From a virus (lineage: Duplodnaviria > Caudoviricetes), in the IMG/VR virus record IMGVR_UViG_3300028242_000036, positions 1-64,000 of that record: a stretch of DNA of 64,000 nucleotides, one strand, 5' to 3'. Below are positions 47,651 through 48,946 of the stretch, piece after piece (within the stretch, counting starts at the first letter, position 1; every line of letters starts with the position of its first letter). A program made the translations under genes and the position numbers. The notes beneath the pieces were generated by a model that was not told the origin of the DNA, made no database searches, and saw only the letters and a program-made list of their open reading frames with translations.

Positions 47651-47712
47651 AAGGCTCAATTTTGCATTACAGATTAGCAGTCTGTCCCAAAAGATTTTGC
47701 TGTACGAGCCTT
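47651..47712 (-). ncRNA. ACAGCAA-module RNA E1 with Ser(GCU) anticodon stem-loop
   Basis: AAGGCUC/GAGCCUU stem, GUACAGCAA; cargo ACAGA-CUGCUAA-UCUGU. Confidence 0.75.
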
Positions 47713-47733
47713 AGAAATTATTTTAAAAAATAC

Positions 47734-47802
47734 AAGTCGCAATTTTTGTATAAGTTTAAATTTCAAGTTTAATCTCATAGTATGATTTGCTGTATGCGAC
47801 TT
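47734..47802 (-). ncRNA. ACAGCAA-module RNA E2 with Ser(UGA) anticodon stem-loop
   Basis: AAGUCGCA/UGCGACUU stem; cargo UUAAA-CUUGAAA-UUUAA. Confidence 0.75.
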
Positions 47803-47826
47803 ATGTATATTAAAGAAAGGAGAGAC

Positions 47827-47888
47827 AAGACACATTGAAAAGAAAGCCACCATCGTCTATTAGTAAATTTATTTGCTGTATGTGTCTT
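47827..47888 (-). ncRNA. ACAGCAA-module RNA E3 (cargo unassigned)
   Basis: AAGACACAU/AUGUGUCUU stem plus ACAGCAA. Confidence 0.7.
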
Positions 47889-47913
47889 AAAAGGAGAATC
47901 AAAACGAAACCCT

Positions 47914-47987
47914 TGGAGCAACATAAGGTACTTGAAACCTTATTTTCTGATTGGAAATCAAATGTGTTACCGTTACACCAATGTTGC
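47914..47987 (-). tRNA. tRNA-Gly(UCC)
   Basis: Full cloverleaf; loop TTTCCAA; encoded CCA. Confidence 0.9.
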
Positions 47988-47997
47988 ATATAATAAC

Positions 47998-48127
47998 AAG
48001 ACTCTATCAATAAACAATAGTCGCTGTCTTACCCCTTGACTACTACCTCATTCGGCAGGTAGGAATCGAACCTACGAATGGCGACTTGGCTTCTGTTATT
48101 TGAAAAAAGAATTGCTGTTAGAGTCTT
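47998..48127 (-). ncRNA. ACAGCAA-module RNA E4 containing a circularly permuted tRNA body
   Basis: AAGACUCU/AGAGUCUU stem; AGUCGC, T arm GUAGG-UUCGAUU-CCUAC, closed acceptor, D arm GUC..GAC, GCGACU. Confidence 0.8.
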
Positions 48128-48134
48128 ATTTATT

Positions 48135-48210
48135 TGGATGCAGGAGATGGGATTGAACCACCGACCTTCAGGTTATGAGCCTGACGAGCTACCACTGCTA
48201 CCATCCTGCA
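48135..48210 (-). tRNA. tRNA-Met(CAU), initiator-like
   Basis: TCAGG-CTCATAA-CCTGA arm; D and T arms like tRNA-fMet; CCA. Confidence 0.88.
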
Positions 48211-48244
48211 ATATATAATTAAAAAATTTTATAACATTAGGGTG

Positions 48245-48337
48245 TTATATACCCAACACTTCTCTTACAAGCTCTATCGGCAATTCCTGTCCGTAAGCAA
48301 GTGCAAGAATAATTAAACTTCTCTTTAACTTAGACAT
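48245..48337 (-). CDS. 30-aa small ORF MSKLKRSLIILALAYGQELPIELVREVLGI
   Basis: AAGGAGG RBS; read manually (below the ORF-track cutoff). Confidence 0.55.
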   Translation of the reverse strand: MSKLKRSLIILALAYGQELPIELVREVLGI

Positions 48338-48370
48338 TTACATTCCTCCTTATTTTATTTTATTGATTAA

Positions 48371-48446
48371 TGGTGCAGATGGTGGGAGTTGAACCCGACT
48401 TAAGCACGATTAAAAGTCGTGTGCCTGACCGTTAGGCTACATCTGC
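48371..48446 (-). tRNA. tRNA-Lys(UUU)
   Basis: CACGA-CTTTTAA-TCGTG; CCA; slightly irregular T stem. Confidence 0.88.
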
Positions 48447-48449
48447 ATA

Positions 48450-48525
48450 TGGCGGTGACAGAAGGACTTGAACCTTCGACACAGTGGTTAACAGCCACTC
48501 GCTCTACCTACTGAGCTATGCCACC
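48450..48525 (-). tRNA. tRNA-Asn(GUU)
   Basis: AGTGG-CTGTTAA-CCACT; full cloverleaf; CCA. Confidence 0.92.
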
Positions 48526-48543
48526 ATAAAATGATAAGCGTAG

Positions 48544-48627
48544 CTGACATACTACCTTATCTTGCTTCTGTATTTTACAACTTGCAGTAGACCATTGTTG
48601 GGTTTTTACAAAAACGCCTTATGTCAG
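48544..48627 (-). ncRNA. Candidate structured RNA between tRNA-Gln and tRNA-Asn
   Basis: Closing stem CTGACATA/TATGTCAG around a multibranch core (CTAC/GTAG, TGC/GCA, TGTA/TACA). Confidence 0.4.
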
Positions 48628-48656
48628 ATGTGTTTTCGGTGTTGTCCTTCACATTA

Positions 48657-48731
48657 TGGCAGGGGTAATAGGGTTTGAACCTATAATAATGGAGTCAAAG
48701 TCCATCGTGTTGCCAATTACACCATACCCCT
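48657..48731 (-). tRNA. tRNA-Gln(UUG)
   Basis: ATGGA-CTTTGAC-TCCAT; CCA. Confidence 0.92.
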
Positions 48732-48803
48732 ATGTTTGGTGGTTATTAAGGTCAACCACCATAACCTTTTGAAAGAGGTTTATTATGACAAATCATCAAC
48801 AAG

Positions 48804-48877
48804 TGGTGGAAAATGTCAGAATTGAACTGCTCCCCACCCTCCCAAGGGGCGTGTGCTACCGTTACACCACATTCTCC
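48804..48877 (-). tRNA. tRNA-Pro(UGG), irregular T stem
   Basis: CGCCC-CTTGGGA-GGGTG; CCA; T stem only about 3 bp. Confidence 0.75.
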
Positions 48878-48883
48878 ATATTC

Positions 48884-48946
48884 AAGACACATTTCAGGTT
48901 TTATAGTTTAAAAGACTATTCCTAAATAATTTGCTGTATGTGTCTT
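48884..48946 (-). ncRNA. ACAGCAA-module RNA E5 with Lys(UUU) anticodon stem-loop
   Basis: AAGACACAU/AUGUGUCUU; cargo AUAGU-CUUUUAA-ACUAU. Confidence 0.78.

Follow-up and report, generated by a model that had tools for sequence, protein, structure and literature searches.

Cleavage of tRNA is a common anti-phage strategy, employed by PrrC, PARIS, OLD, retron effectors and Schlafen-like nucleases, and the known phage answers to it are replacement tRNAs and repair enzymes. In phage T5, tRNA-Lys, tRNA-Thr and tRNA-Asn neutralise the PARIS nuclease AriB (PMC11464382, PMC12409363), the targets of which are Lys UUU, Asn GUU and Thr UGU (PMC12409363), and a phage tRNA-Thr neutralises P2 OLD (PMC12445682). 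These tRNAs lie in tRNA clusters, their anticodon arm is decisive, Lys UUU and Asn GUU are prominent among them, and repair enzymes are encoded in the same genome. A second group of systems is formed by the bacterial and phage Y RNAs (YrlA, YrlB and Yrn1, PMC4201824; Yrl1 and Yrl2 of phiLo, PMC12135203), which are encoded in tandem, beside and on the strand of the gene for a vWA ring protein of the Ro60 fold, and which consist of a stem formed by their paired ends, an adjoining conserved motif and a variable remainder that mimics tRNA. In Salmonella, Ro60 and Y RNAs belong to an operon with RtcB and RtcA that is responsive to damaged tRNA (PMC7790460), and in the Felix O1-like phage Bas63 a Ro60-like gene located directly upstream of tRNA genes, for which a knockout phenotype is known, counters the ppl defence, its authors having guessed that Y RNAs are hidden among these tRNAs (PMC11482910). 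Here we describe a locus that shares these features with both groups, the tRNA array of a virus of the Caudoviricetes (IMG/VR record IMGVR_UViG_3300028242_000036; the window, that is, the whole stretch of DNA analysed, comprises its positions 1 to 64,000). Eight RNA modules of this array, E1 to E8, share a terminal handle, and three of them, E1, E2 and E5, present an isolated anticodon arm on it.

The modules were collected by a script that searched the whole record for ACAGCAA after a 7-nt strand with a perfect downstream partner; it returned eight modules and no other match (Table 1). All eight start with AAG and finish with CUU followed by G. Their handle consists of a terminal stem of 7-9 bp, the letters of which vary between copies while the pairing is kept, and then of R-Y-ACAGCAA, with ACAGCAA invariant in 8/8 modules.

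On the minus strand, the arms read ACAGA-CUGCUAA-UCUGU in E1 (47685..47669), UUAAA-CUUGAAA-UUUAA in E2 (47772..47756) and AUAGU-CUUUUAA-ACUAU in E5 (48919..48903), so that each loop is composed of C32, U33, the anticodon, A37 and A38. An earlier note, made from the letters alone, had described these three hairpins of 5 bp and 7 nt as standard anticodon stem-loops without other tRNA parts, and this description holds. The letters are found at these coordinates and the arms occur in both the minimum-free-energy and the centroid folds, with fold z-scores of -1.35 (E1), -3.46 (E2) and -3.84 (E5). Neither ARAGORN nor the Rfam tRNA model (RF00005) calls a tRNA in E1, E2 or E5, from which T arm, D arm and acceptor are absent. 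As for the loops, CUUUUAA is found in 25 of the 27 real Lys(UUU) tRNA genes of related phage loci and CUUGAAA in 20 of the 27 real Ser(UGA) genes, being the commonest loop in both cases; CUGCUAA, present in 7 of 36 real Ser(GCU) genes, is the second commonest there, the majority form being UUGCUAA. When the interiors of the eight modules were compared with dinucleotide shuffles, three hairpins of 5 bp and 7 nt with a CUNNNAA loop were seen against 0.011 expected, and 0 of 3000 shuffles reached three.

Directly under the arm, a further 6-bp helix is present in the minimum-free-energy folds of E2 and E5; in E1 this part amounts to 3 bp in the fold, while by eye a pairing of 5 bp (UUUUG/CAAAA) is also possible. 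A helix of 5-6 bp beneath the arm was observed in many arm-type modules (E5, E2, L142, L065, L027 and L071, the L numbers denoting loci of other phages), with a 5' flank of 1 nt and a 3' flank of 3-4 nt, an asymmetry that recalls tRNA position 26 and the variable loop. The earlier note had also proposed a weaker, Arg(ACG)-like arm in E7, AACUU-UUACGGU-GAGUU (49424-49440). This candidate was rejected: the letters exist, but the stem contains G-U pairs, the loop is non-standard, and the fold places these bases in a different, longer helix.

Homologous modules were sought in IMG/VR and in metagenome contigs with patterns that specify only the handle; the 14-base handle pattern has many chance matches, which were filtered by demanding a matching 3' strand. 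These scans returned 335 distinct modules from outside the window. Short modules were defined as those of 85 nt or less from other phages, arms as hairpins of 5 bp and 7 nt with the loop CUNNNAA, and the strict mirror pattern UUNNNAG served as control (a looser one, NYNNNAR, which overlaps canonical loops, was dropped). In the first handle-defined set, an arm was present in 18 of 89 short modules, against 0.15 in dinucleotide shuffles (sd 0.41, maximum 3), with no mirror hairpin. Enrichment of YU-NNN-R loops in homologous elements had been set beforehand as a check in the earlier note, and the enlarged set shows it strongly, with arms in 33/219 short modules against 0.30 in shuffles (maximum 3) and 2 mirror hairpins. 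Among the 95 distinct hairpins of 5 bp and 7 nt in short modules, 44 have C at loop position 32, although C makes up only 12% of those sequences. The loops found in the modules (CUUUUAA, CUGUUAA, CUUGAAA, CUGUAAA and CUGAAAA) are also those most often present in genuine tRNA genes of these loci.

When 22 arm-type modules were aligned, double compensatory changes were observed in 5 of 7 pairs of the terminal stem and in 5 of 5 pairs of the arm, and C32, U33 and A37 were invariant. The covariation score was 0.67, compared with 0.18 in shuffles and no more than 0.14 with slid partners. Since the rows were picked for having both helices, the percentage of pairing is true by construction, which does not apply to the diversity of pair types. 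The same stem may bear different anticodons: AUAGA/UCUAU occurs with UUU, GUU and GCA, and UCAAA/UUUGA with UUU, GUA, CGU and GUC. On five recurrent stems, 12 of 13 distinct loops are canonical. To judge from these sequences, the scaffold seems to stay constant while the three letters of the anticodon are exchanged. Since loops are kept while stems covary, the arms appear to be selected mimics rather than chance hairpins, and we are highly confident that they are real, selected anticodon-arm mimics carried by an RNA partner of a Ro60-like protein.

The protein in question is encoded by the DUF2828 gene, which begins only 43 nt downstream of the end of E1 on the same strand. Its AlphaFold model (mean pLDDT 82, built on 19 homologues) was used for a fold search against the PDB, in which the 13 best matches were all Ro60/TROVE chains, aligned over the full length with E values of 3e-9 to 1e-5; Ro60 of the Thermus phage phiLo was among them, and vWA/MIDAS domains appeared lower in the list. 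The match was settled by the fold search, as a sequence search of the 518-aa protein against PDB chains yielded TROVE entries only at E 0.8 and Pfam assigns it to DUF2828/DUF7788, not to TROVE. The DUF2828 protein is thus predicted, on the basis of this model, to fold like Ro60. In the literature on DUF2828, only plant and tardigrade gene lists were found. By tblastn, a homologue was detected in 709 phage records, including Felix O1-like phages of Escherichia and Salmonella, KVP40-like phages of Vibrio, and phages of Mycobacterium, Listeria, Staphylococcus, Campylobacter, Enterococcus and Bacillus.

The association of modules and gene recurs in cultured phages. In eight of these, the DUF2828 gene was inspected with its 9-kb flanks, and in 7/8 (Felix O1, Fusobacterium Fnu1, Enterococcus ZJGS2, Listeria LP-083-2, Staphylococcus SEP9, Bacillus Izhevsk and Campylobacter F357) modules with an evident handle, one to four per phage, lie within 9 kb of it, mostly at a few hundred bases and often inside a tRNA array. 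The eighth, KVP40, has a single long (213 nt), doubtful candidate about 5.4 kb from the gene. Among the handle-bearing IMG/VR stretches, which are of a few kilobases each, at least 26 of 68 also contain the DUF2828 gene. Bare arms are found beside the gene in several cases. In L001, whose partner protein is 51% identical, a CUGCUAA module (7522-7587) and a CUUGAAA module (7595-7655) lie next to it, with arm stems unlike those of E1 and E2, respectively (UAGGA/UCUUA in the CUUGAAA module). Close relatives of E5, with Lys arms, are located directly upstream of DUF2828 genes in L127, L016/L161 and L027, and Campylobacter phage F357 (MT863720) has a bare arm of Ile GAU type, CAUUA-CUGAUAA-UGAUG, in a module (L298:8802-8865) directly upstream of its DUF2828/vWA gene. 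Other modules have near-whole tRNA-like interiors (L043:1599-1700, L054:3557-3662, L082:1443-1541 and L165:8442-8563, the last being the module of Enterococcus phage ZJGS2, in which the arm is joined to a tRNA body). Some of these are in normal order with an acceptor stem of 4-5 bp, and others are permuted, with the anticodon arm first. Since ARAGORN calls several handle modules as tRNA genes, counts of phage tRNAs may include handle RNAs.

Within the array itself, resemblance to a curated RNA family is confined to E4 and E6, whose T, acceptor and D parts match the YrlA model (Rfam RF02553) with 27.7 bits and 42.7 bits (E 1e-8), respectively, below the cut-off of 69. No YrlA match was obtained for E1, E2 and E5 at E<=10. 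In the window, Rfam at gathering thresholds finds seven tRNAs only and no module family, and at E<=10 the only match of note on E1, E2 or E5 is a weak one to the dictyostelid Class I RNAs. Because of its handle modules, its Ro60-like neighbour, the permuted tRNA bodies and the shared promoters, the array is most plausibly interpreted as a group of genes for Y-RNA-like RNAs that partner the Ro60-like protein. It differs from the known systems in several respects. The Y RNA partner belongs to the TROVE family, whereas the partner here is a DUF2828/DUF7788 protein matched to Ro60 by fold alone; YrlA mimics the elbow and acceptor of tRNA and has no anticodon arm, while E1, E2 and E5 do the reverse and present the anticodon arm alone; and, unlike known Y RNAs, the modules reach eight or more copies per phage and lie inside a tRNA array.

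The Class I RNAs of Dictyostelia (RF01414, PMC7919456) resemble the modules in their AAG start, their short (6-bp) covarying end stem and their variable remainder, and they have a conserved single-stranded motif of about 11 nt directly after the 5' strand, as in the handle; the Rfam consensus, UACAGCAA, is identical to the handle. Their length of 42-65 nt includes that of E1 and E5 (62-63 nt) and is slightly exceeded by E2 (69 nt). The model matches at 48895-48938 and 49174-49211 on the minus strand, with 12.4 and 13.8 bits against a cut-off of 41.5, and these matches represent only a resemblance in handle design, not a shown homology. The Class I RNAs are eukaryotic, are reported to be unique to Dictyostelia, have their own promoter element and an RRM binding protein, and no anticodon mimicry has been described for them (PMC7919456), whereas the modules lie in a phage tRNA array with bacterial promoters of sigma-70 type. 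The defence-neutralising phage tRNAs are complete, decoding and cleavage-resistant replacements, whereas the modules keep the canonical loop. Lacking the acceptor, D and T arms, the modules cannot decode and could act only by binding or by being cut. A comparable mimic is known from the operator of the E. coli thrS mRNA, in which an isolated, anticodon-like hairpin with a 7-nt loop is bound by threonyl-tRNA synthetase; this is a cis-regulatory element of one mRNA with one fixed anticodon, unlike a free small RNA whose anticodons are interchangeable on a protein-binding handle. No paper on RNAs with the ACAGCAA handle or on bare anticodon arms of Y RNAs was found in the literature. Ro60 with tRNA-mimicking Y RNAs is already known, and the DUF2828 partner, the ACAGCAA handle and the bare-arm copies with interchangeable anticodons are new with respect to Rfam and the literature found.

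The coordinates of the array and of the relevant neighbouring genes are given in Table 1.

Table 1. Modules, tRNA genes, promoter-like sites and neighbouring genes (window coordinates).
Feature	Position	Strand	Description
E1	47651..47712	-	Stem AAGGCUC/GAGCCUU, then GUACAGCAA; apical arm mimic 47669-47685, loop CUGCUAA (Ser-GCU type)
E2	47734..47802	-	Stem AAGUCGC/GCGACUU, then AUACAGCAA; 6-bp helix; arm mimic 47756-47772, loop CUUGAAA (Ser-UGA type)
E3	47827..47888	-	Common handle; interior without tRNA-like part
E4	47998..48127	-	Handle (UAACAGCAA) around circularly permuted tRNA body: T arm, closed acceptor, D arm
E5	48884..48946	-	9-bp terminal stem, ACAGCAA, 6-bp helix; arm mimic 48903-48919, loop CUUUUAA (Lys-UUU type)
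E6	49080..49219	-	Handle around permuted tRNA body; 7-bp acceptor stem closed by CCCAAU
E7	49351..49506	-	Common handle, long interior
E8	49516..49590	-	Common handle; apical hairpin with purine-rich loop UAGAGGA
tRNA genes	47914..49308	-	Gly UCC, Met CAU, Lys UUU, Asn GUU, Gln UUG, Pro UGG, Leu UAA
Three tandem promoter-like sites	49974..50263	-	Perfect TTGACA-17-TATAAT; head of the tRNA/module array
DUF2828 + DUF7788 (vWA) protein gene	46052..47608	-	518 aa; phrog_850 'RNA-binding protein', Ro60-like predicted fold; presumed handle partner
RNA ligase gene	39229-40698	-	phrog_968, E 2e-67
P-loop polynucleotide-kinase-like protein gene	33880-34803	-	Weak HD domain match
Phosphoesterase gene	31397-31969	-	phrog_547
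Nucleotidyltransferase gene	35016-35822	-	phrog_388

The seven tRNA genes, called by ARAGORN and Rfam, are on the strand of the modules and interleaved with them. As the earlier note had stated for the window, no tRNA-Ser is encoded in it; in addition, neither a tRNA-Ser nor any other further tRNA was found by ARAGORN or Infernal/Rfam in the entire record of 72,221 bases (46% complete). The promoter-like sites each agree in 12/12 positions with the consensus of sigma-70 type, are spaced by about 100-160 bp and lie in a repeated context of about 40 nt. The first RNA downstream of them would be a tRNA-shaped sequence at 49763-49845 (minus strand) with a T arm, a 3' ACCA and an odd anticodon arm, which is not called as a tRNA by ARAGORN or Rfam. 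Purine-rich apical loops of 7 nt ending in GGA, GAA or CGA were observed as a second recurrent loop type in E8, L037, L149, L150, L159 and L163:10880-10937, in the forms UAGAGGA, UUGGGGA, GUUGGGA, CCAGGAA, UAUAGGA and AGCGGAA. A D loop or a Shine-Dalgarno sequence may be what these loops imitate. Elsewhere on the minus strand of the window, a TET-associated glycosyltransferase gene (30170-31027) suggests DNA hypermodification, and an MrpR-like tyrosine recombinase gene adjoins a DndB-like gene (51355-53764). The DNA of the window is matched by metagenome runs from animal faeces and bovine gut, with no RNA run among those listed. The host is probably a gut bacterium.

The spectrum of anticodons differs from that of the tRNA genes. 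In the first set Lys UUU leads, with 12 arms. The 31 distinct arms of the enlarged set comprise Asn GUU (10), Lys UUU (8), Cys GCA (3), Tyr GUA (3) and Gln UUG (2), together with single arms for Phe, Ser UGA, Ser GCU, Thr CGU and Asp. Asn GUU accounts for 10/31 arms but for only 34 of 861 neighbouring tRNA genes (Fisher p 6e-7), and Lys UUU for 8/31 arms and 27/861 genes (Fisher p 1e-5); these two anticodons are about eleven-fold over-represented, by statistics that ignore phylogenetic kinship. None of the arms corresponds to the most frequent types of phage tRNA (Met, Pro, Gly, Arg UCU, Leu UAA and Thr UGU). There was no clear complementarity by which arms would stand in for missing phage tRNAs, as a tRNA gene with the same anticodon is present in the stretch for 8 of 23 short arm modules.

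Genes for an RNA ligase, a kinase-like protein, a phosphoesterase and a nucleotidyltransferase are encoded on the strand of the array. By such a repair set (Pnkp/Rnl1), phage T4 mends tRNA-Lys cut by PrrC. In Listeria phage LP-083-2 (L294, NC_024383), three handle modules (8665-8926) lie just upstream of the DUF2828 gene, and the region within 6-7 kb downstream (11857-17234) encodes two RNA ligases, one of them RtcB-like, together with a phosphohydrolase and a phosphoesterase.

We propose that E1, E2 and E5 are genes for RNAs of about 62-69 nt that belong to a widespread phage family. These RNAs would be co-transcribed with the seven tRNAs from the three consensus promoters and would be freed when the adjacent tRNAs are processed. 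The handle, if the analogy with Y RNAs applies, would be the docking site of the adjacent Ro60-like ring protein, and the resulting particle would expose the arm to proteins that recognise anticodon loops, most likely host anti-phage tRNA anticodon nucleases, for which the module RNA may act as a competitive bait or as a tripwire. The phage tRNAs, together with the RNA ligase, the kinase and the phosphoesterase, would replace or mend damaged tRNAs, and different phages would load different anticodons on the same scaffold. For this best explanation as a whole, an anticodon arm on a Ro60-partner handle that is offered to anticodon readers, we consider the chances to be about even. A role as bait fits since Asn(GUU) and Lys(UUU) are AriB targets, and since a set of RNA-repair genes and a Ro60-like partner are present; that the arms are bait for anticodon nucleases specifically is our predicted function, which we hold tentatively and with somewhat less assurance than the explanation as a whole.

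Several observations weigh against this proposal. Any decoy would be in competition with tRNAs present in thousands of copies. The stems of the arms are rich in A and U and do not resemble those of real tRNAs, so that nucleases that read the stem, such as P2 OLD (PMC12445682), or the tRNA body would not be fooled. The docking of the DUF2828 protein on the handle is inferred from adjacency and from the analogy with Ro60 and Y RNAs, and the Ro60-binding motif of known Y RNAs is GNCGAA(N)G/CGAA (PMC4201824, PMC12135203), against ACAGCAA here. Moreover, Ser arms of the E1 and E2 types are rare in the family, and we could match neither of them to a characterised anticodon nuclease. The modules were counted in related phages, which are not phylogenetically independent, and the enlarged set was seeded with one handle sequence. 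Finally, since an arm is present in about 15-20% of short modules, the general role of the family cannot rest on anticodon mimicry.

Among the possible functions, we place nuclease bait, whether competitive or in the manner of a tripwire, at the top; bait for modification enzymes or synthetases follows, and functionless remnants come last. According to the second of these possibilities, the arms would attract tRNA modification enzymes or synthetases that read the anticodon, which would be sequestered or recruited to retune host translation; candidates are MiaA (A36-A37-A38), the t6A37 machinery (U36-A37), tRNA-guanine transglycosylase (U33-G34-U35) and the class IIb synthetases (Lys, Asn and Asp). 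The sequences U36-A37 and A36-A37-A38 are determinants for t6A and i6A, and nearly all arm loops end in one or the other, position 36 being U in 25/45 and A in 13/45; richness in A and U, however, by itself favours these letters at that position. The GUN anticodons (Asn, Tyr and Asp) contain the U-G-U element of the transglycosylase, Lys, Asn and Asp share one subclass of synthetases, and tRNA-modifying enzymes act on YrlA-type Y RNAs (PMC4201824). Since the swapping of anticodons on one scaffold and the RNA-repair neighbours would be left unexplained, we regard a bait for these enzymes as improbable, although it deserves consideration.

A role of the arm as tripwire or switch, in the form that a host nuclease cuts it, whereupon the ring protein is released or remodelled and broken tRNAs are handed to the ligase and kinase or to exonucleases, is to our mind similarly improbable. 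In this case the arm would sense the attack rather than compete for the nuclease. Such a switch would recall the way in which Y RNAs gate the cavity of Ro60 and tether it to PNPase (PMC4201824, PMC12135203), and the response of the cellular Ro60/Y RNA operon with RtcB and RtcA to damaged tRNA (PMC7790460); in this phage and in the Listeria phage, genes for RNA ligase, kinase and phosphoesterase are located near the locus or further downstream. The argument is pure analogy, though: one type of arm would suffice for a tripwire, yet the phages carry several and swap anticodons, and nothing separates it from simple competition.

The arms might also be decaying leftovers of tRNA genes captured in the handle, with handle and protein alone being of importance. 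The whole or permuted tRNA bodies in E4, E6, L043, L054 and L082 make a tRNA origin of the interiors plausible, and most short modules bear other hairpins. Decay, however, would hit the loop first, whereas here the loops are exact and the stems change by compensatory pairs; the loops are kept across partner proteins of 51% identity, 12/13 loops on recurrent stems are canonical, and the anticodon spectrum is unlike that of tRNA genes. We therefore consider this explanation very unlikely. It is least probable of all that the arms dock on RNA machines, such as the T-box specifier loops of host synthetase genes or the ribosomal decoding site, to perturb amino-acid sensing or decoding: isolated anticodon stem-loops do bind the 30S decoding site with the cognate codon and T-box specifiers do read anticodons, but a T-box also needs the tRNA elbow and acceptor end, which the modules do not have, and no sequence feature points to either target.

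Returning to bait for anticodon nucleases, a broader and more doubtful generalisation is that Ro60-like particles carrying swappable bare arms, and elsewhere tRNA bodies, constitute a programmable RNA counter-defence, in which each arm would bait or jam the matching nuclease and retargeting would take the change of three letters, with an ACAGCAA handle design common to the Class I RNAs. If the proposed function is true, an arm-only small RNA on a Ro60-like protein would be a third kind of phage answer to tRNA cleavage, besides replacement tRNAs and repair enzymes. It would also assign a definite task to the DUF2828 'RNA-binding protein' of 709 phage records and to the unannotated gaps in phage tRNA arrays, and the displayed anticodon could report which tRNA is attacked by the defences of the host. 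The bare-arm module of the cultured Campylobacter phage F357 offers a possible experimental system, in which the idea could be tested by phage genetics and by in vitro nuclease assays.

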